From Geosiphon pyriformis uo1 (taxonomy: Eukaryota; Fungi; Glomeromycota): a stretch of DNA of 20,908 nucleotides. The DNA lies in the NCBI GenBank assembly GCA_016748015.1, contig JAAOMT010000451.1, positions 5,586-26,493 of the forward strand. The letters are read 5' to 3'. This document shows, in pieces, positions 1 to 20,908 of this stretch. The position numbers and the translations under genes were made by a program. How positions within the stretch are numbered: position 1 is the first letter of the stretch; the number at the start of each line of letters is the position of its first letter. The notes under the pieces were generated by a model that was given only the letters and a program-made list of their open reading frames with translations, was not told the origin of the DNA and made no database searches.

Positions 1-482
1 AAAGCTGCTCTAAGTTTGTAGCGAGTGTTTGTTAATCCAGCTGCTGTCTTAAATTTATTGTGAATTTGTTTTTGTATAGACTCAGAAGTGATGTTGGTTG
101 CTTCAAGTTCCAGTTTTCATTCATAAAGTGTTTTTTCAATATAAAAATATTTATATGTAAGGGTATGTTCCTTGTTTTGTTTATTGAGAAATAGTAGTAG
201 TTTTTGTTAAATTGTGGCATTTGGTGGAATGTCAATAGGGGCAAATAAAAGGTTTTCTTTTAGTCCTTGCTTCAAAAGTTCTGGTAACCTATTTTCAGAG
301 TGACCTCTTGTTTTTTTTCTATAGAGATGATAGTTCTGAGAATTATTTACTATTGGAACTGTGGTTTTTTTTTGAATGTAATTAATTTGACTTCCATTAA
401 TCGTTATGGATAAGTCAGGAAGTGTTTTCAAAGCTAACATTAATTTTTGGAATATTTGTTGAATATTTCGGAGAATAATCAT
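1..482 (-). pseudogene. Element B ORF3: unknown protein, truncated by the window edge
   Basis: MIILRNIQQIFQKLMLALKTLPDL... aligns in frame with A ORF3 across two stops (YFYIEKTLY, KLEL, IQKQ, FKT, YKLRAA). Confidence 0.8.
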
Positions 483-640: not shown

Positions 641-2026
641 TTAAATGTTCAAGTTTGGTTGTTGTTCTATTATGACTATTGGTTCTAAATTTTGGGGAAT
701 ATCTTCAGGATTAATTAAAGGGGAATGTGTACTAATTTGTGGAATTAATGGTTCAGGATTGTTTCTGGAGTGATAGTGTTTCAATCTATCTCTATGTGCA
801 ACTTTTGCTAGTACTTTGTCATCAAGTCTTAACTTGCATGATCTATTGTCTAGAATTTCGTAAATATAAAATGGTCCATCTCATTTGTTTTCAAATTTTC
901 CACTCCATTGTTTTTTAGCCTTAGTTCTATGTAGGAAAACTTTATTTCTAACTTTAAATTCGTTGGTAATGGGTGGTAATTTGTTGTCATGTCTTTTTTT
1001 TTGTTGAGCTTAGAAATGTTCAATGTGAGTTGCTGCTATCTTTCTTTTTCCTTTTAGTGCACTAAGAAGAGTGTAGGCCCTTCTTTAGAGTGTTTTCTGA
1101 AAGTTCTCTTCATTAATTGGTTGCACAGGGTATGTTTCTACTGTAAAATTAATTGGTAATATTGCTGTCCTTCCATAAGTTAAATCAAATAGTGTGTGTT
1201 TCATAGTATCTTGTTTTAGTGTTCTATATGCTAATAATACTGATGGAATAAAGATATCCTATTCCTGCTCAAAATTTGTTGAGACTTTGGCTAGAGATTC
1301 ACACAATGTTCTGTTGAAACATTCTACAAGTCTATTTGTTTGAGAGTGATAAAGTGATAATAGAGATTTTGTAACATTGAATCTTTCACAAATTTTTTGT
1401 ATCAAGTTGTTCACAAAATGTGTTTCTTGATCAAATAAAAGTTCAATTGGGCATCCATGTCTACAAATAATGTCTTCATTGATAAAATTTACTACTGATT
1501 TTGCATCTGCTCTTTGGATGGCTCTAGTTTCAGGCCATTTGGTAAGATAATCTACTGCAACTGCAATATAATAATTTTCTTGGATTGTAATAGGCAGTGG
1601 TCTGACTAAATTAATTCTAACTCTTTCAAAAGATTGTCCAACTTTGATTGGATTTAAAAGTTCTGTGGGGTGAGTTTTTTTTCTTCTTTGACAACTGTCA
1701 CAAGATTCTACGTATTGTCAAATGTCTTTTTGCAAGTGAGGCCAAAAATAATGTTCAAGAGTTCTTTGGATTGTTCTATCTCTTCCCAAATATGCTGAAA
1801 ATAGATCTGTGTACATGTTGTATAAGATTGTTTTTTTTTATTCTCTTGTACTAGTCTGAGTGATTGGTTTGGATTTCTGCAATTTTTGTAATAAATTTTG
1901 TTATGGTGTATGAAATATTGTTTGAATTGGTGTTGTAATCGATGTTTTTCACTTGGAGACCAATTTTCTGACATTTATAAGAGTCTTCAAATAGTTTTTA
2001 AGATTGTTGTAAGTTCTGGAATCCAT
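641..2026 (-). pseudogene. int: Element B ORF2: integrase, degenerate
   Basis: ATG at 2026 (MDSRTYNNLKNYL), CDSC, DYLTKWPE, SDQETHF, DGPFYIYEIL; ends EPIVIIEQQPNLNI-TAA; colinear with A 8836-10219. Confidence 0.92.
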
Positions 2027-2084
2027 TGTTGTTTGGTTATTTTGTTGGTAGATTGGTAAGTTTGTGGTGGATTTGTTGGAAGTG

Positions 2085-2138
2085 TTAATCTTGTCTCATT
2101 CTTAAGAGGCTATCAACATTGGTGTGTAGTTTTTTTGG
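2085..2138 (-). pseudogene. Last codons of element B RNase H, split off by the insertion of A
   Basis: KLHTNVDSLLRMRQD-TAA, homologous to A's KLHTNVDCLSRIRQD-TAG. Confidence 0.85.
2135..2138. repeat. Left copy of the 4-bp target-site duplication of element A (TTGG; right copy CTGG at 12037-12040)
   Basis: Removing A plus one 4-bp copy restores B's frame as HHKPEKLHTNVD, which matches A's own HHKSRKLHTNVD. The one mismatch is a C>T transition. Confidence 0.85.
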
Positions 2139-2354
2139 TGTTACCAGATGAAATTAGAAATATTATTTAACATAAAATTATCCTTATAATTCCTAGCATT
2201 AATTAGCATATATTATTGTTTCAAAGTATCACTTATTATATTAGCAAAATATCTGAAATTATTATTTAATTAATAACCCAATTTGTACATAACACAAATG
2301 TAACCTAACTGTAATGATCAATCATATAATATCCCGAACTATGTAATATTCAAA

Positions 2355-2469
2355 AGTTTGCCAAAATTTGTAAAAATTTGCTGAAATAATTGAATAGTTC
2401 ACCGAAATATCTAATAGTTTGCAGAAATAACTTGTAGTTCGCCAAAATGTATCTTTAGTTCAGCGAAAT
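2355..2469 (+). promoter_or_regulatory. Array of six degenerate AGTTCGCCGAAAT motifs in the LTR (putative U3 enhancer); also at 11271-11385, with five copies in B at 18317-18411
   Basis: Motif starts at 2355, 2375, 2396, 2416, 2436 and 2457 (20-21-bp spacing). The repeat is observed; regulatory function is inferred. Confidence 0.6.
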
Positions 2470-2844
2470 TGTAGAAATAGCAAAAGTTCAAGTTCATAGA
2501 ATAGTGTTATGACAAGTTGTATAAAAAAAGAGCTTCTTTCTTCAAAAAAATGTATTTTATCTTTGATTTAGTAATTAGAATTATTCCTATACACACAAAA
2601 ACAAAATAAATATCAAATAATTTGAAAAATCAATTTTTTAATTATTATACTTGCAATAACACCTAAAAATCCCGACTAACGTTTTAAAATTGATTAGCTA
2701 CCAATTTTAATAAACTGTTAGTGACTCCAGGTCTGGATAGAAAACGTTTTCCTTGATAAAATTTTATTTCTTTTACATTTTTTTTATTTTCTTTTATTTT
2801 CTTATTATAATTATTAAGGTAACCTACAGACGAGATTCCTGTAG

Positions 2845-2945
2845 AAGAGTTGACTTTCACAGCAAAGTAACTGCACATTTTTAGTGAGCTTCTAAACAAG
2901 CAATTCTTGGGAAAGAGTTGACGTTTACTACAACGTAACTACACA
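2845..2945 (+). repeat. Two 33-bp direct repeats 68 bp apart in the LTR, each folding into a bulged stem-loop
   Basis: AAGAGTTGACTTTCACAGCAAAGTAACTGCACA and AAGAGTTGACGTTTACTACAACGTAACTACACA; present in all three LTRs. Confidence 0.8.
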
Positions 2946-3122
2946 AAGCAACTGGCACAGAATTGGCTATTTCACTTATAAGCCTAGTAGTTTAAATTAT
3001 AGGAGATAATTTGAAGATAAATTCAGTTATTGGAAATTCAATTACTTCCAGAAAACGTGAATTCACAGCAAATCAACAATTATAACGTTCAAAAAAAGAG
3101 ACCAAAAACCTTTGGTAACATT

Positions 3123-3140
3123 TGGTGCTCTCCTACAGAA
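3123..3140 (+). promoter_or_regulatory. Primer-binding site of element A (TGGTGCTCTCCTACAGAA)
   Basis: Begins with TGG (complement of tRNA CCA) 2 nt after the 5' LTR; near-identical 18-mer in element B. Confidence 0.85.
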
Positions 3141-3903
3141 ACAACACAGCAAAAACAACTTCAAAGTGGTGACCACACCAGATGCAACAACTCTAGAGTA
3201 TTACTAGTCAATTTATACCCACTGCAAACAAAGATTTAACATCCCAGACAGAATTGAAGTTATTAAGAAATCAGTATACCAATACATTGAAAACTGCATT
3301 AACAATTATCTTTTTGGAAATTACAACATCTCAGAAGTTAGAAGCAACCTTTACAATAATTTAGTGCACTATTCACAGTTGGGAACTGAAGACCTTAACA
3401 GTAAAACACTTGCTACCTATTTTCAAGAACTTAATTTTAACATCATTGAGTATTGTGAAAAAAAATACCTAGTACAGTTTCAATACTTTATTGACTTCGA
3501 ATCAGAGATAGAAACAAGCAACAAAGACAGACAAAAATTGAAACAATATTCAAGAACTACACCAAACACTCCAATACTACAAAAGACAACTGCCAAACAC
3601 TTGCAAACATCTGAACAAGAAACCAATGTCAAATTACCACTTTCTATTACACTATTTCCAATTTCACTTGCTCAACCACAAATACCAAGCTCACCACTTA
3701 TTCGGTTTTCAAGAATAGAAGATTTTCAGTCACCTAAAAGCCCTATTCAACAACAAGAATCTCTTTTAACTAGCACTAATCGTCTTGACTTTTTAACAGA
3801 AAATCAAAGTGAACATTCTGAGACAGCCAGTCATGACAAAAACAATTCTGAATTATCTGAAAAAGAAGAAGAATCAATCCACAATGAAAGTGAAGAAGAC
3901 GAA

Positions 3904-4650
3904 ATGACAGCTTATATTGCAAAAATTCCCGAATTTAATGGAGAAGATATTGAAACCAGTCCCCAAGAATGGCTTGACCAAGTTACTAAAGCGGAAGATG
4001 CAAATGGATGGAATGCTGCCAGAATGTTAAGAACAATTCCTTACTTTCTCAAAGGAACAGCAGGCAAATGGTTTGAAAACTTGACCACCCTTTTTAATGA
4101 CTGGACAGCTTTCAAAACTGTCTTCTTAGAACAGTTTACCAACAACAATACTTCTATCACTTTCTGGAATCGCTTCCGAAATATCAAACAAGAGCCATCC
4201 AAATCTGTCATGATTTATATTGGGAAATTCAACAAACTTCTCAGACAAATTCGCCAACTTGAAACTAATGATTATTATTTCAATGCTCAAATCTTGGACC
4301 AATTTATCACTGGTTTAAAGAATAAACTGATTAAAAAGATTCACCCACATGTCCCAGAAGATTTAAACTCTGCCATTCAGCATGCAAAAAAATATGAAAT
4401 GGCCATGGAAGAAGCCAATCATACAAAACTTGTGAACTTAACTATTAGAAAAACCAGCTCAGCAGCTGAGGAAAAAATCGACCAACTCACAAAAAAAGTT
4501 GAAAACTATTTCACCAACCAACAACAACAGCAACCCCAAAGATATCAACCACCCCAAAGACGAAATCAAAACAACTTCGCATTATCCTCTAATAACCAGC
4601 CTCAGAATTGCCATTACTGTGGAATTCCTGGCCACTGGAAAAGAGATTGC
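3904..4650 (+). pseudogene. gag: Gag capsid region and CCHC zinc knuckle of element A
   Basis: Retrotransposon Gag-like motifs (IPEFNGED, PQEWLD, YFLKGTAGKWF, IKQEPSKSV, QFITGL) and CHYCGIPGHWKRDC = CX2CX4HX4C at 4609-4650. Confidence 0.9.
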
Positions 4651-5199
4651 AGAAAGCTACAAAGAGATTAACAAAACAGAAGCAATCAATATTACTCTTT
4701 ACTATAGCAGTCTTATTATCAAACATTACCACCAGCTTACTATCTATCAAGACCCCAATACCAAAATAACTATTATTAGTCTGCCCCACAGCCAATCCAA
4801 CAGCAATACCAACAACCACCCACACAATATTATCAAGTATCTGCTCAAAGATTGATTCTGCAAAATCAATTCACATCACAAAACCAATACCAAATAAACA
4901 ACAATAGAATCAATTCAAACAACCAATTGGTTCCCCAAAATTCCACTTAACCAAGACCCACTCACTATTACACTCAACCCAGTTATTTAACAATACCAGA
5001 AGAACAGAATTTTTACAATACTGCACTTTTAGAAGGTAGAGCTGCAGCACAATAACAAAACCTTTTCTATACCTCTACCACAATTCTACCAGCCAGAATT
5101 GCTGAAAATGCCAACCTTTCAGATATATTCTCTTTTGAATTTGAAACAAATGAATCACCATTTTTACTTAGCAATGTCACTGCAAATGAACAGAAAGCA

Positions 5200-5560
5200 A
5201 TCACAGCTATGTATACCAAAGCTGAAATTGAAGGAAAGCCAATTCGCTTAATCCTAAACAATGGATTTGCCGAAAGTATCATCACCTATCAGTTGATGCA
5301 ACAACTGAAAAGAAATATCGACTGACCTGCACAAACAGTCATTGTTACAACTGATAGCATAAAGAAAACCCCAGTAGGCGAAATTGATAATTTTCTCTTC
5401 ACAATTGACAGAATCACTATTCCAGTTAAGGTATTGGTTATAGATGCTCCCCAATACCAAGCTCTTGTTGGAAATAATTGGCTCCAAAAAGCCAATGCCA
5501 ACTTAAATTGGGAAACCCAAGAATTAACAATTTTTTATCAAAGACAACATGTCTGAGTAC
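5200..5560 (+). pseudogene. Retropepsin-like aspartic protease of element A (degenerate)
   Basis: EIEGKPIRLILNNGFAESII (decayed LDSG motif; B has LNSGLAGSII) and YQALVGNNWL (decayed LG-DWL); same frame as Gag. Confidence 0.85.
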
Positions 5561-5789
5561 CTACCACTTGTGGTACATTCAACAAATGCTCTAAAAAAGC
5601 CCCGGCTTTTGAATTCGAACCAGAAAAAAAAAACCAATAGTCAAAACATTCATGGCCCTTGGATCAACGTCCAATTGGGCTGACAAAACTGAACAAGAAC
5701 ATTTTACACCATACTCTAAACCCAAAACCCCTGGATGGAATATCCCCTACTCAAAGCCTGAATTAAGAAAATGATGCCCCTACATTCCC

Positions 5790-6400
5790 CTTAAATGTAA
5801 GGACTGCCACAAGAAACTATCATCAATGGGAGCTTGTATTTCACCTGAGGAAGAATATGAAAGTCACACCTGTTATTATTGCAAGACCTGTCATCAAAAA
5901 TAATGGGGCCACTTGATTAAAAAAAGTGGAAAATGGGATGAAACACCCTGTCTTACTTGTGGAAAGCAGCTTCTTGATAAATGTGACTGGATTAATGTTG
6001 TATTTAGAGGAGGAGTATGTGATCAAACTTGTCAATATGCTCTTTTTATAGCAGAAAAAGTAAAACATGGAACACCTTTTGATGCCGCATATAACAGTGC
6101 CCTCAACAAACTTTATCACTACCTCCATGACGCCAAAATGATCTACAAACTTGCCATGGTTTTAATTAACAGAGGAACCAAGGAAGATGTTTTTCAAATG
6201 AAGAAAGCTGAATATATCGAATATACATTGGAATTAGCTGGATTTGATTATAAAGATGAAGTTGAAGAATATTACCAAATTGCAAACCATTCATACCCAA
6301 CCCAAGAAGCTCAAATTCAATAATTAGAGCAAATGAATATTCAATTATGTGAAAAATGTATTATGTCTTGTAATGATAAATGGTGTCCAGAATGCTATGC
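5790..6400 (+). pseudogene. Uncharacterised cysteine-rich domain with several CxxC pairs between protease and dUTPase (element A)
   Basis: CKDC...CYYCKTC, CLTC...CDQTC, CEKC-IMS-C-NDKW-CPEC; colinear and conserved in B at ~14380-14990 (-). Confidence 0.75.
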
Positions 6401-6519
6401 TCTTAGTGTTCCTCTACCAAGTGAAAATGATGAGTTTGAAATTGAATTTGAAAAGCCCGAAATAACAGAGGAAATTGAAACAACCCCAATCTATCTCCTT
6501 AAAAATCACTCTGCCCTAC

Positions 6520-6947
6520 AACTCAAGTATTTTAACAACAATGGCCAAGGAATAAAACTGGAGAAAGCCCATGAAATAGATGCTGGATATGATCTGAGAT
6601 ATCTAGGCAAAGATACCCTTATCCTTCAGCCAAACTCCCTTACCAAAATCAATCTAAAAATTGCCCTTGAAATCCCACCAGGAACAGTGGTTCAAATTGC
6701 TTCTCAATCATTCTTGGCAAGCAAAGGAATCAATATTAGAGGAGGAATTATTGATGCTGGATATACAGGAAACATCACAATTATGTTACAAAACAAAACT
6801 GATAAACCATTCAGAATTGAACATGCTGAAAAAATTGCTCAAGCTATCTATTTACCTTTAATCAACATTTTGGGCTTACAGTTAGTCAATCAAAGAGAAC
6901 AATTGGAAAAAAGTGAAAGAGGAACACAAGGTTTTGGTTCAACTGGA
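6520..6947 (+). pseudogene. dut: dUTPase domain of element A
   Basis: All five trimeric-dUTPase motifs recognisable: DAGYDL, ASQSFLASKGI (RSS-like; B has ASRLSLAS), GGIIDAGYTGNI, EKIAQAI, SERGTQGFGSTG. Confidence 0.93.
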
Positions 6948-7559
6948 TGATTCACAGTTCCAGTAAACATAGCTCTCAATGAACAGAAAGAATCCCACCA
7001 GATTCTTCGACTTCCACAACCAAACACTATTTCACCTTTTGGAGAACACCCCAAAATTTATACTTGTGAGAAACCAACAATAAGCCAACAAATTTTTGAA
7101 TCCAATGAACAAATTTGTTTGGAACATAGTATTTTAATCCCAAACATTTATATTCCAAAAGGAACAAAAAAAATCCGAGTTACTTTCTATAATCCCAACA
7201 ATTACCCTATTGTTTTGTTAAATAACTTAGAAATTGGAGTTATTCACAGTAACATCTTTTAACAAAAATTACCTCAGACAGTTCCCAATTTCTCAGAAAT
7301 TATTGGACATTCACTACCAAAAATCAACCCAAATCTCAGCTCCAAAAACTATCATGTTGTTACTGAAAAACTAGCTTGAATCAACATGAAACAGCTCAAA
7401 CCACAACAGCAGAACCAGTTCAAAGAATTAATAGCAGAATATGCTGATATTTTCATTAAGAACAACAATAATCTAAGAAGAACTAATTTGGTTCAACATC
7501 AAATTTATACAGAAGATGCCAAACCAAGATGACAACAAGCATATTGAGTCGCCCCAGAA

Positions 7560-8787
7560 AGCCACCAATTCATTCACAAAGAAGTACAACGGATGCTTAA
7601 CAATGAGCTTATCTAACCATCAATGAGCCCATGGGCTTCATCTGTGGTTTTAGTTAAAAAGAAAAATGAAAAAATACAATTTTGTGTTGATTATTGACAA
7701 CTTAACAGTGTTATCATTGAAGATGCCTACTCTCTTCTCCGAATCGATGACATGTTAGATGCCCTTGGAAAATCCAAATACTTTTCAATATTAGATTTGG
7801 AAAGTGGATACTGGCAAATCACCATGGATCCCAAAGATCACCCCAAAACAGCTTTCATCACCCAAGGAAGAAATTACGAGTTCAACATAATGCCTTTTGG
7901 ACTATGCAATGCACTTGCAACATTTCAAAAACTCATGGATATTGTATACAAAGGCCTCCTTTGGAAATCAGTAATTGTCTATCTAGATGATACAGATGTT
8001 TATTCACCATCTTTTGAGTTATATTTAATTCACTTGTGAGAAGTTTTTCAATGATTACAAAAAACAGGATTGAAACTGAACATTGAAAAATGCTACTTTG
8101 GAAAAACAAGTCTGGCCTTTTTTGGTCATATTGTTAGCAAAAATGGGATTAAACCTAATTCTGCAAAAATTAGCACAGTCAAAAACTTCAAGACTTTCTG
8201 AAACACCATAGAACTGAAAGGATTTATCGGATTAGCATTCTATTATCAAAAATTCATTAAAGAATTTTCAGATCACAAAACCTCTCAACCAACTGATCAC
8301 CAAAAATGTCGAATATAAATGGACTGTTGAACATCAAAAAGCTTTTGAAATTCTTAAGGAAAAACTTACAACAGCTCCAATTCTTGCCTAACCTGATTTT
8401 AGTAACTGATTTTGACTAGCTACGGATGCTTTTTATGCTGCCTTTGGTGCCATCTTATTACAATTAGATGACAACGAAAATGAGTGAGTAATCGCTTATG
8501 CCAGCAGAACACTAAAACCAGTAGAAAAAAATTACCCAGCAACAGAACTAGAAACAGCAGCAGTAATTTGGGCCCTACATCATTTCAATCTCTATCTTAG
8601 ACCTAAAAAATTCGATATTATTACTGATAATATTAGACTCAAATGGTTACAAAACCAAAACACTCAACTCAATACAAAACAAATCTGATGGATAGAATTC
8701 TTAGCAAACTATCAATATATAGTGCACCACAAATCAAGAAAACTCCACACCAATGTTGACTGTCTTTCAAGAATAAGGCAAGATTAG
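7560..8787 (+). pseudogene. pol: Reverse transcriptase and RNase H of element A
   Basis: Ty3-type RT motifs (CVDY-QLN, LDLESGYWQI, KTAF, MPFGL, VYLDD, LNIEKC, FFGHIVS) followed by RNase H. Confidence 0.95.
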
Positions 8788-8835
8788 AAAAACACAAGCA
8801 ACACTCAATTCAACCAACAAAGACAGCCACAAACA

Positions 8836-10219
8836 ATGAACCCTAAAAACTACAACAATCTCAAACAATATTTGGAGACATTAACAATCCTAACAAATTG
8901 GTCTTCAGATGAAAAACACTGATTACAACAAAAAGCCAAACAATATTTTCTACACAACAACACTATTTATTATTGAAACTTCAGAAATCCAGACAAATCA
9001 TTCAGATTAATACAGGAAAATGAGAAAGAAACTATCTTATACAACATGCACTCAAACCCTTCATCAACACATTTAGGAAAAAATAGCACTACTCAGAGAA
9101 CACTAGAATATTACTTTTGGCCTCGAATGAGAAAAAACATTCATGAATACATCAAATTTTGTGATAGTTGTTAAAGAAGAGAAGGAACTCGCCCTATAAA
9201 ACCTTTAAACCCAATCAAAGTTGAACAGTCTTTTGATTAAGTTGGTATCGATTTAGTCAGATCACTACCTATCACCAACCAAGAAAACCAATATATTGCA
9301 GTAGCTGTAGATTATCTTACCAAATGGCCTGAAACCAGAGCCATTCAACGAGTAGATGCAAAATCAGTAGCAAACTTCATTTATGAAGACATTATTTGTA
9401 GACATAGATGTCCAATTGAACTTTTATCCAACCAAGAAACATATTTTGTGAACAACTTGATACAAAAAATTTGTGAACAGTTTAATGTCAAAAGACTATT
9501 ATCTTCGCCCTACCATCCACAAACAAATGGACTTGTAGAATGTTTCAACAGAACATTGTGTGAATCATTAGCCAAAGTTTCAACTGATTTTGAGCAAGAA
9601 TGGGACATTTTTATTCCATCAGTGTTATTAGCATACAGAATGCTAAAACAAGATACCACAAAACACACACCATTTGATTTAACTTACAGAAGGACAGCAA
9701 CATTACCAATTAATTTGACAATAAAAACATACCCAGTACAACCAATTAATGAAGACAATTTCCAAGAAACACTTCAACAAAGAGCCTACATTCTGTTTAG
9801 TACATTGGAAGGAAAATAACGAATAGCAGCCACCTATATTGAACACTTCCAAACTCAACAAAAAAATGGCATAACAACAAATTGCCTCCAATTACCAATA
9901 AGTTTAAAATTGGAAACAAAGTTCTCTTACACAGAACTAAAGCTGAAAAACAATGCAGTGAAAAATTTAAAATAAATGGGATGGGCCATTCTTTATCCAT
10001 GAAGTTCTAGGCAATGAATCATACAAGCTAAGACTTGATGACAAAATCCTAGCAAAAGTTGCACATAGAGATCATTTGAAACACTATAATTCCAGAAACA
10101 ATCCTGAATCATTAATTCCACAAATTGGTACACATTTCCCTTTAATCAATTCTGAAGATATTCCCTAAAACTTAAAACCAATAGTTGTTATTGAACAACC
10201 TCTTAACTTGAACACTTAA
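8836..10219 (+). pseudogene. int: Element A ORF2: integrase (HHCC, DDE, GPY/F), no chromodomain
   Basis: NMH...THLG and CDSC (9160-9171); VGIDLV, DYLTKWPE, decayed SDQG, SSPYHPQTNGLVE; WDGPFFIHEVLGN; ends PIVVIEQPLNLNT-TAA; starts at ACAATG after the ORF1 stop. Confidence 0.93.
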
Positions 10220-10366
10220 TTTAAATTTACTATAGTTATTCCCTTATAAATTAAAAATAATTTCACAAAAATAAAACAAGACAAAACACACTGAAAAACA
10301 AAAATAACATAAAAATCCATATACCAAAAATAATTTCAGTCTATTTTTTTTATTCAAAATTTTATA

Positions 10367-11086
10367 ATGACTATCCCTCAAAATATTCAACAATTATCTG
10401 GAAAATTAATGCTAGCTTTAAAAACAATACCCGAATTATTTATTACTATTACTGGAAAACATATTAATTATACCCAAACAAAAATAGTTACAAATTTAGT
10501 TCCAAATTCACGAAAATGTCACCCCTATAAAAAGAACACAAAAAGTTATTCTGGAATTCATCTACCAGAACTTTTAAAGCTTGTTTTAAGAGAAAACTTA
10601 TTGCTCACTTTTATTAGTATTTTACTGAATGTTACTATTCAACAAAAACTTCAACTGTGTCTTAATGAGGAAAACAGCAAATACCTCTCAATATATAGAT
10701 ATTTCTACATTGGAAAAACACTTTACAAATGAAAACTGGAGCTTACAACAGCAAATCTCATAAAAGAAGCTATTCAAAAACAACTCTACAATGAATTCAA
10801 GACAACAGTTGGACCTACAAACAACCACTATAAACTAAAAGCTGCTTTTAGACTTTATGACCTATTTCACACCTGTGAAAACGTCCTACAAAATCCAGTT
10901 TTACAACTCTTGAAAATTCAATACATTGGAAAGCTCACAGAACTGAAATTTCAACAATTTTCAGACCAAATTTCTTTAATTATTTTGGACTACTATCTGG
11001 AAATTACAAACAGTACTTGGACTTCAACAGAACTCAGTCTTGAGGAGGAGGTTATGTTACCAAATGAAATTAGAAATATTATTTAG
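10367..11086 (+). pseudogene. Element A ORF3: unknown protein (~239 codons, one internal TGA at 10730-10732)
   Basis: ATG 10367; frame stays open after the TGA (KLELTTANLIKEAIQKQLYNEFKTTVG...YKLKAAFRLYDLF...) through the PPT to TAG 11084-11086 inside the LTR; homologous ORF in B at 482 to <1. Confidence 0.8.
11042..11051 (+). promoter_or_regulatory. Polypurine tract of element A (GAGGAGGAGG)
   Basis: Purine run 3 nt upstream of the 3' LTR. Confidence 0.85.
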
Positions 11087-12036
11087 CATAAAATTACTCT
11101 TATAATTCCTAGTATTAATTAGCATATATTATCATTTCAAAGTATCACTTATTATATTAGCAAAATATCCGAAATTATTATTTAATTGATAACTTAATTT
11201 GTACATAACACAAATGTAATCTAACTGCAACAATCAATCATGTAATACCCCGAACTATGTAACATTCAAAAGTTCGCGGAAATTTGTAGAAATTTGCCAA
11301 AATAATTGAATAGTTCACTGAAATATCTAATAGTTCGCAGAAATAACTTGTAGTTTGCCAAAATGTATCTTTAGTTCAGCAAAATTGTAGAAATAGCAAA
11401 AGTTCAAGTTTATAGAATAGTGTTATGACAAGTTGTATAAAAGAAAAGCTTCTCTCTTCAAGAAAATGTATCTTACTTTTGATTTAGTAATTAGAATCAT
11501 TCCTATATACACAAAAACAAAATAAATATTAAATAATTTGAAAAATCAAATTCTTAATTATTATACTTGCAATAACACCTAAAAATCCTGACTAACATTT
11601 TAAAATTGATTAGCTACCAATTTCAGTAAACTGTTAGTGACTCTAGGCCTGAATAGAAAACGTTTTCCTTAATAAAATTCTATTTCTTTTACATTTCTTT
11701 TATTTTCTTTTATTTTCTTATTATAATTATTAGGGTAACCTACAGACAAGATTCCTGTAGAAGAGTTGACTTTCACAGCAAAGTAATTACACATTTTTAG
11801 TGAGCTTCCAGATGAACAATTCTTGGGAAAGAGTTGACATTTACTACAACGTAACTATACAAAGCAACTGGCACAGAATTGGCCATTCTACTTATAAGCC
11901 TAGCAGTTCAAATTATAGGAGATAATTTGAAGATAAATTCAGTTATTGGAGGTTCAATTACTTCCAGAAAACATGAATTCACAGCAAATCAACAATTACA
12001 ACGTTCAAAAAAAGAGACCAAAAACCTCTGGTAACA
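11055..12036 (+). repeat. 3' LTR of element A (982 bp)
   Basis: Starts TGTTACCAAATG, ends CTCTGGTAACA; direct repeat of 2139-3120; preceded by a purine tract. Confidence 0.97.
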
Positions 12037-15000
12037 CTGGTTTGTGGTGTACAATGTATTTATAGTCTGCTAGAAAATTATTTTATCAAGACTGTTTAGC
12101 ACTTTGTTCAGTTTTCTTTTTATTGAGCCATTTGAGACTAATATTGTCAGTTATAATGTCAAATTCTTTTCCATTTCTCAGATATTGTTGAAAATGTTTG
12201 AAAGCTCATATGACTGCAGCTGTTTTTAATTCAGTTGAGCCATATTTGAGTTCTGTTGGCTTGAGTGTTCTGCTGGCATAAGCAATAACTTGTTCTTGGC
12301 CATTTTCATCTAATTGTGATAAGATGGCACCAAATGCTGTATGTGAAGCATTAGTGATTAGTTGAAACCATTTGTTAAAGTCTGGATAAGTAAGAACTGG
12401 GGCTGTTGTCAATTTTGTTTTGAGAGTGTCAAATGCTTTCTGTTGTTCTTCAGTCTATTTGTATGGCACATTTTTGTTGGTAAGGTAATTGAGTGGTTTG
12501 ACAATTTCTGAAAATTCTTTTATGAATTTTTGATAATAAGAGGCTAACTTTACAAATCCTCTTAGTTCTGTGGTATTTTTGGGAGTTTGAAAGTTTTTGA
12601 CAGCACTTATTGTTTCAGGGTTTGGTTTGACTCTATCTTTGCTAACAATGTGTCCAAAAAAGATTAGGCTTGTTTTTCCAAAGTGACATTTTTCAATGTT
12701 CAATTTTAATTCTGCTTTCTGTAATCGTTAAAAAACTTCTCACAGATGGATAAGATGGGCTTCAAAGTTTGATGAGTATACATCAGTGTCATCAAGATAG
12801 ACAACTACTAACTGCCATAAGAGTCCTTCATATACAACATCCATGAGTTGTTGAAATGTTGCTGGTGCATTGCAGAGTCCAAAAAGCATTACATTGAACT
12901 CATAGTTTCCTCCTTGAGCGGTAAATGCTGTTTTGGGTCGATCTTTTGGGTCCATTTTGACTTGCCAGTATCTACTTTCCAAGTCTAAAGTTGAGAAGAA
13001 CTTGGCTTTTCCTAGAGCATCTAGCATGTTATCAATTCTTGGAAGAGGGTAGGCATCTCCAATTGTAACACTATTCAGTTGTCTATAATTAACACAAAAT
13101 CTGATTTTTCCGTTTTTCTTTTTAACTAAAACTACTGGTGAGGCCCAAGAACTTCTTGATGGTTGAATCAATCCGTTATTGAGCATTCTTTGGACCTCTT
13201 TTATAATAAATTAGTGGCTGGCAGATGGCACTCAATAAGCTTGTTGTTTTTTTGGTGGAGCATCTTCTGTGTGAATCTAATATTGAACAATATCAGTTTT
13301 TTTCAGGTCATTGTTGTCTTTTGCAAAGATATCTGCAAATTCAGCTATTAACTGTTTCAACTGTCTTTGTTGTTGGGATTCTAAAAGACCCATGTTGATT
13401 TGAGAGAGTTTTTTTTCCAAAAGATGGTAGTTTTCAGTAGTAGAAATGATGTTTGAATTTGAAAGTAGGGTATGTCTTATAATTTCGATAAAATTAGAGA
13501 CAATTTGAGGGTTTTCATCTTGGAAGATATTATTATGTATGATTCCAATTTCTAATTTATTTAATAGAACAATAGGATAATTGTTGGGGTTGTAGAATAT
13601 AACTTGAAATTTTTTTATTTTTTTAGGAATATAAACGTTTGGGATTGAGATTTCATGTTTCAAACAGATTTGTTCATTGGATTTAAAGATTTATTGGGTA
13701 GTGGTGGGTTTTGAGCAAGTGTAAATTTTGTGATGTTTACCAAAAGGTGAAATGGTAATTGGTTGAGAAAGTTGAAGAATCTGGTAGAATTCATTTTGTG
13801 CATTAAGAGCTATGTTTACTGGTACTGTAAATCATCCAGTTAAACCAAAACCTTAAGTTTCTCTTTCACTTTTTCCCAATTGTTCTCTGTTCTTTACTGA
13901 TTGTAAACCCGAAATATTGATTAAAGATAGATAAATTGCTTGGGCAATTTTCTCAGCATGTTCAATCCTGAATGGTTTGTCTGTTTTATTTTGTAATATG
14001 ATGGTAATGTCTCCAGTATATCTTGCATCTATGACTTCTCCTCTAATGTTGATTTCTTTGCTTGCCAACGATAATCTAGATGCAATTTGAACCATTGCTC
14101 CAGATGGAATTTCAAGAACAATTTTAAAATTGATCTTTGTTAAGGACTTTGGTTGAAGAACCAAAATATCTTTTTCTGAATATCTTAAATCATATCCAGC
14201 ATCAATTTTGTGTGCTTTTTCTGGTCTAATTTCTTGGCCATGGTTGTCAAAATATTTAAGTTGTAAAGATGATTGCTTTTTAAGAAGATAGACAAGAGTG
14301 GTTGGTAGTTTTTTTACCAGTTCAGATACTCCAAATTTGATTTCATTTTCATTATTTTTCTCTGGCAGGGGAATGCTAAGAGCATAACATTCTAAACACC
14401 ATTGGTCATCACAAGGCATAACACATTCTTCACACAATTGAATGTTCATTTGCTCTAATTGTTGAATTTGAGCTTCTTTGGTCGAATATGTGTGGCTTGC
14501 AATTTGGTGGTAGGTTTTTACTTCATCTTCATAATCAAATCCAGCTAATTCCATGGTGTACTCAATATATTCAGCTTCTTTCATTTGGCAAACATCTTTT
14601 TGGGTGGCTCTATTGATCAATGTCATTGCTAAGTCAAAAATCATTTCAGCATTATGTAAGTAGTAGTAAAGTTTATTGAGAGCACTGTTGTATATTGCAT
14701 CAAATGGTGTTCCTCTTCTGACTTTTTCCGAAATTAATAGAGCATATTGGCAGGTTTGGTCACATACTCCTCCTTTCATTGCAACATCAATTCAGTTACA
14801 TTTTTCTAGTAGCATATTTCCACATGTAAGGCAAAGTGTGTTGTTTTATTTTCCACTCTTTTTGGGATATCCAAATCGTTCTTTATGGCATGCTTTGCAA
14901 AAGTAGCAGATACAAGTTTTATATTCCTCTTCTGGAAAAATACATGCTTTTATTGATAAAAGTTTTTTGTTGCAATCTTTGTATTTGAGTGGAATGTAGA

Positions 15001-17650
15001 GTGGTTGTTTCTGTGGTTCTGGTGTGGAATATCTGACTTTCTTCCATTTTTTTGATTTTTCAAAAATCTTCTGTTCTGTTTCTTCAGCCCAATTGGATGT
15101 TGATCCAAGAGCCATGTAAGTTTCAGTGAGTGGCATTTCTTTTTCCTCTTCAAATTCAAATACTGGAGCTTTTTCTGTTCATTTGTTGAAAGTTTTACAA
15201 GTAGCAAGTACTATAATGTATTGTTCTTGGTATGAGATTTTTAGTTTCTGAGTTTCCCAATCTAAGTTTGCATTGGCCTTAAGAAGCCAATCATTTCTGA
15301 CTAGAACTTAGTATTGGGGTACATCCATGACTAAAACTTTGACTGAGATGGTAATTCCATCAATGGTAAATAGAAAATTGTTAATTTTTCCTACTAGTGT
15401 CTTTTTCATATCATCTGCTGTAATAATTACAGTTTGGACTGGTCTGTCAACAGTTTTTTGAAATTGTGGTATTAACTGGTAAATAATAATACTTCCTGCT
15501 AATCCACTGTTTAAAATTAATTAGATAGATTTTTCTTCTACTGTAGCTTCAATGTACATAGCAGTGATGGCTTTCTGTTCATTAGCTGCTGCATTACTAA
15601 CCAAGAATGATAATTCATTTGCTTCAAATTCGAATGGGAATATATCTGAGAGATTGGCATTTTGGGCAATTTGAACTGGTGGAATGGTATTGTTGGAAGA
15701 GTTTGATCTTGGTGCTGCAACTTCACTTTCAGAAAGTGCAGTTTATTAAAAATTCGATCCTTCTGGCATTGTAAGATAACTGGGTTAAGTGTGATAGTGG
15801 TTGAATCTTTGCTGACCAGAATTTCAGAAAACCAACTGGTTATTTGAGTTGATTCTGTTGTTGTTATTCTGAAATTGATTTTGGGATGTAAATTGGTTAT
15901 GTTGAACCAATTTTCTGACTGGTATTTAATATTGTTGAGTGGGTGTGTCTGATTTTGCTGAATTGGCAAAGGTTGTTGATATTGTTGTTGAATTGGTTAT
16001 GGGGCTGGTTGATAATAACTGTTTTGATTTTGTGGTTTTGGTGAATAATAAGTTAATGGTAGAGGTTGGTAATAAGATTGTTGTGGTGAAGAGTAACATT
16101 GATTACTTCTGTTTTGTTGGTCTCTTTGCAATTTCCTGCAATTTTGTTTCCAGTGTCCTGGAATTTCACAATAATGACAATTTTGAGATTGGTTGTTAGA
16201 TGGTGATCCAAAATTGTTTTGGTTTTGTTATTGTGGTTGTTGATATCTTTGTGATTGTTGCTGTTGTTGTTGGTTTGTAAAGTAGCTTTCAACTTTCTTT
16301 GCAAGTTGATCTATCTTTTCTTCAGCTGCTAAGCTGGTTTTTCCAATAGCTAGATTTACAAGTTTGGTGTGGTTTGCTTCTTCTATTGCTATTTTGTAGT
16401 TTTTTGCATGTTTTATGGCAGTTGTTAAGTCTTCTGGGGCATGTGGACGAACTTTCTTAATGAGTTTGTCTTTTAATCCAGCTATGAATTGATCCAAAAT
16501 CTGGACATCAGAATAGTAATCATTGGTTTCCAATTGTTGAATTTGTCGAAAAAGTTTATTGAATCTTCCAAGATAGGTTATGACAGTTTTAGATGTTTCT
16601 TGTTTGATATTGCAAAAGTGATTGTGAAGAGTAATAGAGGTGTTGTTGTCAGTGAATTGTTGTAAGAAAACATCTTTGAATGCTTGTCAGTTCTCAAATA
16701 GTTCTTCCAAGTTTTTAAACCATTCTCTTACAGTTCCTTGGAGAAAGTATGAGATTGTTTTGAGCATTCTTGCTGCATTCCAACCATTTGCATCTCCTGC
16801 TTTTTGAACTTTGTCAAGTCATTCTTGAGAACTGGTATCATTATCTTTACCAATGAATTCTGAGATGTTTGTAATGTAAGCAGTTGCCATTTTTTCTTTG
16901 TTTTCTATGGTTTCTTCTTGTTCTGATTCAGTTTCTTTACTTTCCAAGTTTTCTGAAAGATTACTTTCGATTTTCTGTAAGTACTCAATAATATTGGTAC
17001 TTGTTGATATTGGTTCCTGCTGTTGAATAAGATTTCTAATTGACTGAAAATCTTCTGGTCTGGAGAAATAGCTAAGTAGTGAACTTGGTGTTTGTAATTG
17101 AACAAGTGAAATTAGAAATAGTGTAATAGAAAGTGGTAATTTGACACTGGTTTCTTGTTCAGGTGTTTGCAAGTGTTTGGCAGTTGTTTTTGTAGTATTG
17201 AAGTGTTTGGAGTGGTTCTTGAATATTGCTTCAATTTCTGTTTGTCTTTGTTGCTTGTTTTTGTTTTTGATTCAAAGTCAAGAGAGTATTGAGACTGTAC
17301 TGGGTATGTTTCTTTACAATACTTGATAATATTAAAATTAAAGTTCTTGGAAGTAGGTGGCAAGTGTATCACTGTTAAGATCTTCAGTTCCCAATTGTGA
17401 ATAGTGTACTAAATTATTGCAAAGGTTGCTTCTCACTTCTGAAATGTTGTAATTTCTAAGAAGATAATTGTTGATATGATTTTCAATATATTGGTATACT
17501 GATTTTTTGACAACATTAATTCCGTCTGAGATGTTGAATCTTTGCTTGCAATGGATGTAAATTGACTGATAATACTCTAGGGTTGCTGTGTCTGGTGTGG
17601 TCACCACTTTGAATTTGTTGTTGCTATGTTATTTCCGTAAGAGAGCACCA
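12037..17650 (-). pseudogene. gag-pol: Element B ORF1: Gag-PR-Cys-rich-dUTPase-RT-RNase H, degenerate
   Basis: Track ORFs give Gag (ATG 16890; knuckle CHYCEIPGHWKQNC at 16138-16179), protease (~15200-15560), CxxC domain, dUTPase (DAGYDL, VIDARYTGDI, KIAQAI; ~13835-14260), RT (YLDD in ORF 12740-13186) and RNase H (12206-12412). Confidence 0.92.
17633..17650 (-). promoter_or_regulatory. Primer-binding site of element B (TGGTGCTCTCTTACGGAA)
   Basis: 2 nt downstream of the LTR, starts TGG, matches A's PBS at 16 of 18 positions. Confidence 0.85.
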
Positions 17651-17652
17651 AA

Positions 17653-18618
17653 TGTTACTGGAGGTTTTTGGTCTCTTTTCTTGAATGTTGTAAGTGTCAA
17701 TTTGCCATAAATTCATGTTTCCAGAAAGTAGTTGGACCTCCAGTAACTGAATTTATCTTCAAATTATCTTCTATAATTTGAACTGCTGGGCTTATAAGTG
17801 GAATGGCCAATTCTGTGCCAGTTGCTTTGTGTAGTTACATTGTAGTAAATGTCAACTCTTTTCCAGAAATTGCTCATTTGAAAGCTCACTAAAAATGTGT
17901 AGTTACTTTGCTGTAAAAGTCAACTCTTCTACAAGAATCTTGTCTGTAGGCTACCTTAATGATTATGATAAGAAAAGAAAAATAAAAAAATGTAAAAGAA
18001 ATAAGATTTTATCAAGGAAAACATTTTCTATCCAGACCTGAAGTCACTAACAGATTATTGAAATTGGTAGTTAATCAATTTCAAAATGTTAGTTGTGTTG
18101 AGGGAATTTCAAGTGTAATAATTTTAAGGATTTGTTTTTCGAATATTTAATTTTTATTTGAATATATAAAAGGTAATTTGTTTCAATTAAGATTCTAAAG
18201 TGAAATACTATGTTAAGATACTATAAGAAAATACATTTTTTTGAAGAGAAAAGCTTTTTTTTTATACAACTTGTTGTAGTACTAGTCTTTAAACTTGCAC
18301 TTTTCTCTTTGCTATAATTTGGGTGAACTAAAGATATATTTTGGCAAATTTACAAGTTATTTCACTAAACTATTGATTATTTCGACAAATTTTCATTAAT
18401 TTCGGCAAATTTTGACTATGTTAAAAGGTTCAGGATATTGTGTAATTCGATTATCTTAATTTCTAAAGTACAAATCGGATTGTTGATTGAGTAATGATAT
18501 TTGATAATTTGATTAAATAATAAGTAATAATCGAATTAATAATAATGTATGCTAATTAATAATAGGAATTATAAGAGTAATTTCATGTTAATTAATAGCT
18601 AAAATTCTACTGGTAACA
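17653..18618 (-). repeat. 5' LTR of element B (966 bp)
   Basis: Minus strand starts TGTTACCAG and ends CCAGTAACA; homologous to A's LTRs, most strongly in the PBS-proximal ~430 bp. Confidence 0.93.
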
Positions 18619-20650
18619 ATGGCCTTAAGACTTTCAGATAAGTGCAAGCTGAGAATTCTTTAGCAAATTTGGTGATTTTTGGCAATTTAAAAAGCATTCT
18701 TGGCAAGTTGTTCAAGCATTGAGCCATGGATTTGCAGACTATTAGCTGGATGTCTTAACAATCTCTCAATTTTCTGATTTCATTGTCAATCAACTTCTTG
18801 AATTGCTTCCTAGCTAGTGTTATCAACACTTTGGCTTTGTGCAAATTTTTTTTGAGTGGTTTTCTGTCTAATGTTTTTTACACTGGTGGTAATGTTGCTG
18901 TTGTTGATGTTTTAGGCTTGGATTAATATCTGAGTGTGATGGACTCACTCAAGAGATTTGGTTTGGTCTTCACTAACCAGCTTTTGAATCATCATGGCAA
19001 GTGTTTTACTTGAAAAAGCTTTCACAGATAGAAGAGACTAAATCCCAGAGGGTTCATTCCTAATTGGTACAGTTTGCTTGTCAATTTCATTGAAAATGGT
19101 GGCTTGGTCTATGATTGTGCTTTTGCTTTCAGTCCTGTTCTCAGTTACTGTTTGGACAAAGTTAATTCTGTTGGTAGATGTTTTTTAGAGTGCAGATTAG
19201 GCCACTTTGTTGTTTATACTAATGATTTAATCAAGGATTTTAATACTGTAAATGCTTATGGTAGTGCTACTGCATACTTTTCAAACATAGACAAAGGTGT
19301 TAGAGTTGAAGTGTGTGGTCTGCTTTCTTTAATTTTAATGGAATTGCAGGCTATTACTTTTACTTTGGATTGTGTGCTAGTGTTCAGCTTGGTAATTTTG
19401 TATATGGATAGTCAAGCTTTTTTGAATTATGCTTTGTTTGGGAGTAATACAGATTTTGATTTTCATAAAAAATATTGGTTGGAGAAAGAGTGTATCTATT
19501 AAATAATTATATCTAAGAATTTGTTAATTAGTTAGAACAAGATCAAGAGTTATTCTGGAGTTGTTGACAATAAGCATGCTGATTTTCTGGCTGATACTAC
19601 CACCAAATCCAATTTTGCACTGCTTGTAGATATGTCATGCTATTTTTTGACCATTAAAAACATACTTGTTTCCAAAAATGTTTGTTATTTTGTTAGGTGT
19701 CTTTTTGATGCTATAAGTTTTGTTGGTTGAAAGTCCAAATGCACTGGGTGTTTTGTGAATAGTAGTCTGTATGATAAGTTTGATATGGATTAAATTTTTA
19801 GTGTATGACATCTCGATAGTAAGTGTCATTCCAAATTTACTAGCTTTGCTTCTGTGGCACTTAGATTTTACTTTATAAAAGTCTTGCATTGCCAATTATC
19901 TGTTGCCAAAAAAAAGAGACTGTATAATTCAAAATATCCCAGTGTTCTGTATATTTACTGTGGTTTGGTCAAAAACTCTAACCACACATTTTTCTATATT
20001 TATGATGCACATGTTAGAAGAGATCTCATTAATAAGACTATTGATTATTAGAATGATCTGCTAGATGCCTGTGCTACTAAGAATATAGTAATAGGTTTTT
20101 TGTATAAGACTGAGTTTTCTAATTGGTTGTACATATCTTTAGCCAAAGATTTTGTAATGAGTGAGTAAGTAACTGACACTGCTCATTTGTTGGGTGGTAG
20201 TTCCAATGGTGCATCTCTGATTATTAATTTGATTTAGAGTTTTACTAAGGGTCACAAATCCACTATGTGGCTGCTAACTGCCAAGTTGAAAACACATTAT
20301 AAGAAACTGGGTCTCCTACCACATGATAAATCTGCAGTGTCAATAGTGTCTGGTCTAGTTTTTTTGTGGTCTCTTAGTAAAATTTTTGATTTTGATATTA
20401 GGTTTGATATCTATGTTTGTTTTGGTTTGCATTCCCATCTATTTAGTATAAGTTTTAATATCTTGTGTAACTTCTCTGTTGTAATTAATTTTGGTGTTTA
20501 GTGTTGCCTTAATTGGTTCAAGTGGCTAGTTACATGTAAAAAATGCATGAGCCATACTTATTATAAAAACTTGTATGATCCTATAGCTTTAAGTAATAGT
20601 TGGGCTATACTCATTAAATACTTAATAAAAAAAAAATAAAAAAATAAAAT
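18619..20650 (+). mobile_element. 3' part of a heavily degraded non-LTR (LINE-like) retrotransposon: ORF2 C-terminal region, 3' UTR and poly(A) tail
   Basis: Decayed RNase H (VYTND from YTDG; MELQAI; LYMDSQA; KIKSYSGVVDNKHADFLA from KVKGHSG..GNE.AD) at ~19209-19595; decayed CCHC finger (YIYCGLVKNSNHTFFY) at ~19944-19997; ORF ends at 20501; AATAAA plus A-run at ~20624-20650. Confidence 0.8.
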
Positions 20651-20908
20651 AACTATCAATTTATTTTTATTGTTTTTATAATATTTAAAAGTTTTTTGTA
20701 TTAGATATTATAATTATTAAATGGTTTATTATAGAAAAAATTAAAGTTTATAAATTGACTTAACTATAATTTAATTTTATTATTAGCTTTTTTTTTCCAT
20801 AATATATTAATATAATTTTATTATTTTTGTTTTATAATCTATTTTTTTGAAATTTTTTACAAATTATAAACTTTTAAAAAAAATTTATTAATTAAATATT
20901 AGTTTAAT
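20651..20908. other. Extremely AT-rich low-complexity intergenic DNA
   Basis: Almost no G or C, homopolymer runs, no ORF. Confidence 0.7.

Follow-up and report, generated by a model that had tools for sequence, protein, structure and literature searches.

In retrotransposons with long terminal repeats (LTRs), the integrase enters the particle as part of Gag-Pol. How, then, is an integrase made and delivered when it has an open reading frame (ORF) of its own? The question is raised by a stretch of 20,908 nucleotides from Geosiphon pyriformis uo1 (contig JAAOMT010000451.1, positions 5,586 to 26,493; hereafter the window), in which a Ty3/Gypsy element, A, interrupts a relative, B, that runs in the opposite direction. 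The two have the same layout: Gag-protease-Cys-rich block-dUTPase-reverse transcriptase (RT)-RNase H, a stop, a spacer (48 nt in A, 58 nt in B), an ATG-started integrase ORF and a third ORF, ORF3. The available text of two accounts of Metaviridae gives an integrase within pol as the standard layout (PMC10224137, PMC5408684). Judging from sequence comparison, we regard both the separate integrase and ORF3 as family properties, and as extending far beyond the Geosiphon family. The integrase may well be made by termination-reinitiation on gag-pol RNA, a reading that we hold with about even confidence.

Evidence for a separate integrase

In A, the RT-RNase H frame closes at TAG 8785-8787 and is followed on the forward strand by a C/A-rich, unstructured 48-nt spacer without ATG (8788..8835) and a decayed stand-alone integrase ORF (8836..10219) with H2C2, rve and a C-terminal SH3/GPF module. 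B carries its RNase H tail, spacer and integrase at 641..2138 of the reverse strand; its junction reads TAA (2087-2085), 58 nt of C/A-rich spacer, then ATG (2026-2024), and the integrase stands in a frame relative to RNase H unlike that of A. The first-pass annotation had called this layout a family property because two diverged copies share it. The conclusion stands, thanks to the relatives described below and the ORF3 family, but the two-copy argument does not: 4 of the 26 premature gag-pol stops in A are also stops in B, as is the internal stop of A's ORF3, and two copies are therefore insufficient to prove the split.

Contigs of run X1, which represent many copies, show no alternative letter at 8% or more at either 8785-8787 or 8836-8838, and their loose ends behind 8786 start with A, matching the TAA of B-type copies. 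X1 is a single DNA run, possibly the window's own source, and hence not independent of the window. Among the best 120 integrase homologues, drawn from proteins of 189-602 residues, 102 start with Met no more than 15 residues from where the query starts, Rhizophagus proteins included, and none carries the RNase H end motif. A third line of evidence comes from metagenome loci: out of 573 confirmed stretches we kept the 80 that ranked highest. RNase H lies upstream of integrase at 47 of the 80, with too little flank at most others, and at all 47 of these informative loci, defined by matches to both enzymes, the two are split (0 fused). The junctions use frames 0, 1 and 2 at 12, 19 and 16 loci, with all three stop codons represented, and the integrase Met is invariant in 55/55 aligned integrases. 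As a control, RT-RNase H is open at 32 of 37 of these loci.

Two points weigh against this picture. Longer proteins, searched separately, gave four close matches (P0244-P0247; next best ≤41% identity), all of them eukaryotic gene models and all annotated as RNase H-integrase fusions. They lack the junction residues and to us look like stitched gene models; P0245 is the sister of locus L001 in the RT tree, and the L001 integrase is separate. In addition, the 47 loci include near-copies, and the set was itself drawn from the best 80 of 573.

Named relatives of the integrase and ORF3 are proteins of Rhizophagus, Cetraspora, Gigaspora and Glomus, the others being soil metagenome contigs; viral contigs yielded three weak integrase fragments and nothing more. 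Whether the integrase was freed only once is less clear. A quick RT tree of 97 rows places the 31 split elements in one group, together with one long branch and the two gene models (SH-aLRT 91). In a second quick tree of 83 rows, made after removal of 14 long-branch or near-identical rows, L061 is placed with a long plant branch and so divides that group. On this reduced set, the tree uniting 33 rows has a likelihood 6.55 log units higher, with a p-AU of 0.61 that does not establish a clade of split elements. By these sequence trees, a single origin is allowed, not shown.

ORF3, a conserved gene downstream of the integrase

ORF3 of A (10367..11086, forward strand) has 239 codons with one internal stop and crosses the polypurine tract into the 3' LTR; that of B (1..482, reverse strand) is truncated by the window end. 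The 120 matches listed are all Geosiphon pyriformis proteins at 59-85% identity, 23 of them with the full 239 residues, a pattern that points to this fungus as the most probable host. Beyond Geosiphon, among the 31 loci with sufficient flank, 20 have an ATG-started ORF of at least 100 codons 3' of the integrase, versus 2 on the opposite strand, and 24 of 26 post-integrase ORFs fall into one BLAST component with Geosiphon ORF3, linked via L003 (32%, E 3e-15) and L049. At E 0.001, a profile search recovered 594 clusters. When built from 125 non-Geosiphon ORF3s, a profile matched 92 of the 120 Geosiphon proteins below E 1e-4, with 1/480 shuffled and 0/120 reversed controls; the 120 are not independent of each other, and the 125 were gathered with a profile containing three Geosiphon rows. 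The reverse test was weak (4/125). We read Geosiphon ORF3 and the large ORF3 family as probable distant homologues, a link that the low hhalign value (43.7%) counts against. Also unfavourable is that the core profile does not detect ORF3 at 15 of 35 long-flank loci, some of which have a diverged ORF3 (L003, L008) or different genes.

At two loci the ORF3 position is taken by a NUDIX hydrolase ORF (L031:1945-2889, E 1e-10) and an ORF bearing a helix-turn-helix (HTH) domain (L017:6546-6944). ORF3-like domains also occur within longer Gigaspora/Cetraspora gene models, P0394 (twice) and P0486, which may be host captures or stitched models.

The model of the ORF3 core is confident (pLDDT 97), with eight helices, all-helical and soluble; the model of Geosiphon ORF3, built from a shallow alignment, is unusable (pLDDT 41). 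Against solved and viral folds the core model reached a best Z of 4.5, with no Foldseek hit at E ≤0.001. Pfam and PHROG gave no recurring family, there was no sequence relative of solved structure, and the Atlas gave leads only. A likeness to DUF1016/DUF3102-type helical domains found no support (one match, E 0.11). Conserved residues include Arg and aromatics. A 19-residue hydropathy above 1.6 is found in none of the 120 Geosiphon ORF3s and in 1 of the 125 core proteins (the decayed window copy reaches 1.75). The earlier suggestion of a soluble ORF3 agrees with a family without membrane segment, and on this sequence evidence ORF3 is not an Env.

How the integrase may be translated

Under termination-reinitiation, ribosomes that have terminated at the end of RNase H would begin again at the integrase ATG of the same RNA. 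A single ancestral event may have put a stop and an ATG in place of the protease cleavage site before the integrase, after which sub-lineages would have tuned the restart through overlapping stop-start codons (8/47), short unstructured spacers (the Geosiphon family), repeated motifs or a 37-nt structure. Junction gaps range from -20 to 1026 nt (n = 47), with 8 overlaps, 2 loci at 2 nt, 24 at 24-97 nt and 13 at 149-1026 nt, so that 34 of 47 are below 100 nt; at L047 and L051 stop and start overlap as TAATG. The available part of one source provides precedents in the SART1 UAAUG overlap, the LINE-1 63-nt spacer and victoriviruses (PMC5972666). As in the split elements, a downstream enzyme ORF there lies behind a stop, with an overlap or a spacer of about 60 nt, but SART1 and LINE-1 are non-LTR elements, victoriviruses are double-stranded RNA viruses, and A's upstream ORF is about 1,890 codons long. 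For restart we also count the strong context of the integrase ATG, the shortage of ATGs before it and the normal frequency of splice-acceptor signals there, all three detailed below, as well as the unfolded spacers of the window. Several points speak against restart. The 13 gaps above 140 nt are difficult for simple restart, and viral restart usually requires a closely spaced stop and start, as the same partial source has it (PMC5972666). The 37-nt structured motif does not occur in the window, and the mechanism is read from DNA and protein sequence.

A serious but rather less probable alternative is that integrase and ORF3 are translated from subgenomic RNAs of their own, produced by an internal start, distant splicing or RNA processing. 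The integrase ATG has a strong Kozak-like context (purine at -3 in 62/68, G at +4 in 64/68) and ATGs upstream of it are depleted (15/66 versus 40 in single-base shuffles), both of which suit a normal scanned 5' end, as do the long spacers at 13 of 47 loci. Third ORFs of LTR elements are, moreover, typically carried by spliced messages, according to the part of PMC5408684 available. Yet a branch site plus AG in the 60 nt before the ATG is not in excess (18/66 versus 17.8), the B spacer contains no AG at all, and at 10 of 47 junctions stop and start either overlap or are no more than 2 nt apart.

Ribosomes might instead enter internally, whether or not they terminate upstream, at the 37-nt structure and the A-rich spacers; this seems unlikely. 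The 37-nt RNA element is found once per locus, 0-30 nt 5' of the integrase ATG, at 26 of 80 loci, all in a sister group (for example L020:1218-1255, L024:3352-3388 and L037:1130-1166, plus 23 more loci). Changes on both sides occur in 7 of 12 pairs, 97.7% of cells are paired, and a fixed U-G pair indicates that it is the RNA of the sense strand that carries the motif; a possible 2-bp pseudoknot varies on one side only. But the structure was drawn from the same sequences that score its pairing, and 25 of its roughly 26 rows are related to one another. Even when weak scores are allowed, 52 of 80 loci lack the element, and its RNA model (R1) finds nothing better than E 0.18, not a real match, in the window, where the spacers of both A and B are unfolded. 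Internal entry would also leave the conserved closeness of stop and start unexplained. Rfam held nothing credible for the window or for the 20 loci scanned, the 37-nt element included, and the motif pattern had 0 matches in viral and prokaryote collections.

Recoding of the junction, whether as readthrough or as a frameshift, to yield a Gag-Pol-integrase fusion is very improbable. True, the integrase of A shares the frame of RNase H, with a single TAG intervening, and readthrough is apparently used elsewhere in the lineage (TGA-CTA between protease and RT). Yet junctions occur in each of the three frames and with each of the three stop codons, B's integrase lies in a different frame, and the integrase Met is invariant. 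The reading of the stop as a product of C-to-T decay and of ORF3 as a remnant, which the heavy load of transitions and the four premature stops common to A and B would suit, is already refuted by intact relatives with the split, by their Met starts, the uniform X1 junctions and open RT-RNase H frames, by the full-length Geosiphon ORF3s and by the size of the ORF3 family.

Some features of these loci stand apart from the junction itself. A second, unstructured class of spacer carries a short GGA-type motif two to three times before the ATG (L001, L002, L004, L005, L007, L009, L010, L013, L014, L016, L017 and L022) and gave no consensus structure. An in-frame TGA lies between protease and RT at 6 of 20 loci (L011:2498, L012:2882, L015:870, L058:3290, L080:780 and L073:3109). 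Five of the six are followed by CTA, a readthrough-like context, which suggests programmed readthrough after the protease. At eight loci (L024, L027, L039, L044, L054, L056, L074 and L077) the pol frame runs 219-343 codons beyond RNase H, without a Pfam family.

If restart does yield a free integrase, the enzyme would have to get to the complementary DNA (cDNA) outside Gag-Pol. Its packaging or nuclear delivery might then be aided by ORF3, whose product is small, soluble and helical; we suggest this tentatively, from the position of the gene and from necessity. The most far-reaching version strikes us as doubtful: an undescribed Glomeromycota clade in which the integrase was freed once, restart or internal entry is steered in one branch by a 37-nt pseudoknot-like RNA, and a new-fold ORF3 brings the integrase to cDNA, possibly as a step to Ginger-like transposons.

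Element architecture and place among known systems

A has two 982-bp LTRs with TG..CA ends (2139..3120 and 11055..12036), a primer binding site (PBS)-like sequence at 3123..3140 that opens with TGG two bases past the LTR and has a counterpart in B, a polypurine tract at 11042..11051 (all on the forward strand) and a 4-bp target duplication (2135..2138, right copy 12037-12040, one mismatch). LTRs, target duplication and polypurine tract are structural hallmarks of Ty3/Gypsy. B is not a neighbouring copy but the element into which A inserted, its RNase H being split at 12037/2138. On the reverse strand, B's 5' LTR lies at 17653..18618 and its gag-pol, as far as the insertion point, at 12037..17652. 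Both A and B are dead copies. The LTRs of A are identical at 910 of 982 positions, and 70 of the 72 differences are transitions; CpG observed/expected is 0.19 across the window. The transitions occur in many contexts, CpG not being the sole one, which suggests broad cytosine deamination after insertion. Each LTR also contains a pair of 54-nt repeats, 68 nt apart (2824-2945 and 11740-11861), which have hairpins and what looks like one compensatory change. These had been proposed as structured LTR elements, but their folding is not better than that of shuffled sequences (z -0.26 and -1.67). Beyond B's LTR, the window (18620-20908) is AT-rich decayed sequence, in which one 156-codon stop-to-stop frame has no Pfam match.

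The Pfam order in A is Retrotrans_gag, zf-CCHC, aspartyl protease, dUTPase, RVT_1, RT_RNaseH, Integrase_H2C2, rve and SH3_Tf2-1. On the forward strand, an open frame 5' of the Gag core (3121..3903) is followed by Gag capsid with a CCHC zinc knuckle (3904..4656), protease (5218..5487, with Asn at the catalytic Asp position in both A and B), a Cys-rich block of no recognised family (5796..6395), dUTPase between protease and RT (6561..6947), and RT with RNase H (7371..8787). Frame breaks fall at about 5630 and 8279 in A, where B is intact, and at about 15950 in B, where A is intact; hence gag-pol was originally one frame of about 1,890 codons. The Cys-rich block keeps 15 of 16 motif-position Cys between A and B, and A/B differences by codon position over 5631-6500 are 71/49/115, against 65/53/57 in the LTR control, so the block was coding. 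The proposed N-terminal Gag extension is present as an open frame with a weaker third-position excess (39/38/58), but it lacks an in-frame ATG in A and B alike. Relatives have Met-started Gag extensions of 54-540 codons at 11 of 15 loci with a Gag match, unrelated to the window's.

The extension, the Cys-rich block and the dUTPase of the window had 0 matches among the 80 related metagenome loci, and the first two matched no Pfam family (best HypA, E 0.12). The idea that four unusual modules form one package therefore fails, and dUTPase with Cys-rich block is, by this comparison, a local gain of the Geosiphon element family. There the dUTPase would limit uracil in cDNA, an established role of retroviral dUTPases. 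Its position between protease and RT is in any case already published, in the available text of three papers, for fungi, rotifers and planarians (PMC2864245, PMC6431247, PMC5408684). These elements, Postia PosPlaTy3-5, those of Phanerochaete, Tuber Tmt1, bdelloid Juno/Vesta/TelKA and planarian Burro, share the dUTPase position with A; a separate integrase is unmentioned in the parts available, and the Cys-rich block before the dUTPase is a feature of A and B, the comparison being by description only.

The best solved match is Ty3 RT for the RT (4OL8, E 2e-52) and Ty3 integrase for the integrase (7Q5B, E 7e-46). A shares LTRs, a CCHC Gag and the PR-RT-RH-IN order with Ty3/Gypsy elements such as yeast Ty3, whose integrase lies inside pol, whereas A, B and their relatives have it in its own ORF, plus a conserved non-Env ORF3. 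Judged by RT, integrase and domain order, A works like a Ty3/Gypsy element, but it departs from the canonical integrase-in-pol layout. The integrase of A has no chromo match at E 0.5, its ORF stopping at 10219 shortly past the SH3 module, and no chromodomain is found among the domains of the best 120 homologues. Three other identities were rejected: chromovirus (no chromodomain), env-bearing element (ORF3 not Env) and Ginger (RT and LTRs present). Ginger DNA transposons and GIN genes do have a stand-alone Gypsy-like rve integrase like that of A (PMC5751038, in part), and such integrases would count as Ginger under an rve-only rule; A is set apart from Ginger, by description, by its upstream RT-RNase H and flanking LTRs.

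Errantiviruses, complex retroviruses and foamy viruses resemble A as we picture it in having three ORFs and an enzyme packaged without a Gag anchor; in foamy viruses Pol is made apart from Gag. In the A family, by contrast, ORF3 has no transmembrane segment, and the sequences show no sign of splicing or an extracellular stage. They lend no support to the suggested likeness to a complex retrovirus: neither an Env nor an enrichment of splice-acceptor signals was seen. The main texts of open-licence papers, the literature covered here (Repbase, Dfam and GyDB lie outside it), yielded no account of Gypsy elements whose integrase has an ORF of its own, and the available portions of PMC2774666, PMC13468544 and 10.64898/2026.05.21.726589 contain nothing on one. 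Mycorrhizal transposon surveys, in the text available, give superfamily counts only (PMC11952901, 10.1101/2021.03.30.436303, PMC5751038); one of them puts LTR sequence at 41.2% of G. pyriformis (PMC11952901).

When a widespread lineage does away with the link between Gag-Pol and integrase, the question arises of how free integrase is made and delivered. Its overlaps, spacers and compact RNA structure absent from Rfam would be natural variants of eukaryotic polycistronic translation, and ORF3 represents a conserved family whose confidently modelled core found no match among the folds compared. In mycorrhizal genomes, annotation takes separate integrases and ORF3s for host genes or transposases, at least 120 Geosiphon 'hypothetical proteins' among them. 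If the reading is true, free integrase genes could be a step from retrotransposon to Ginger-like DNA transposon.

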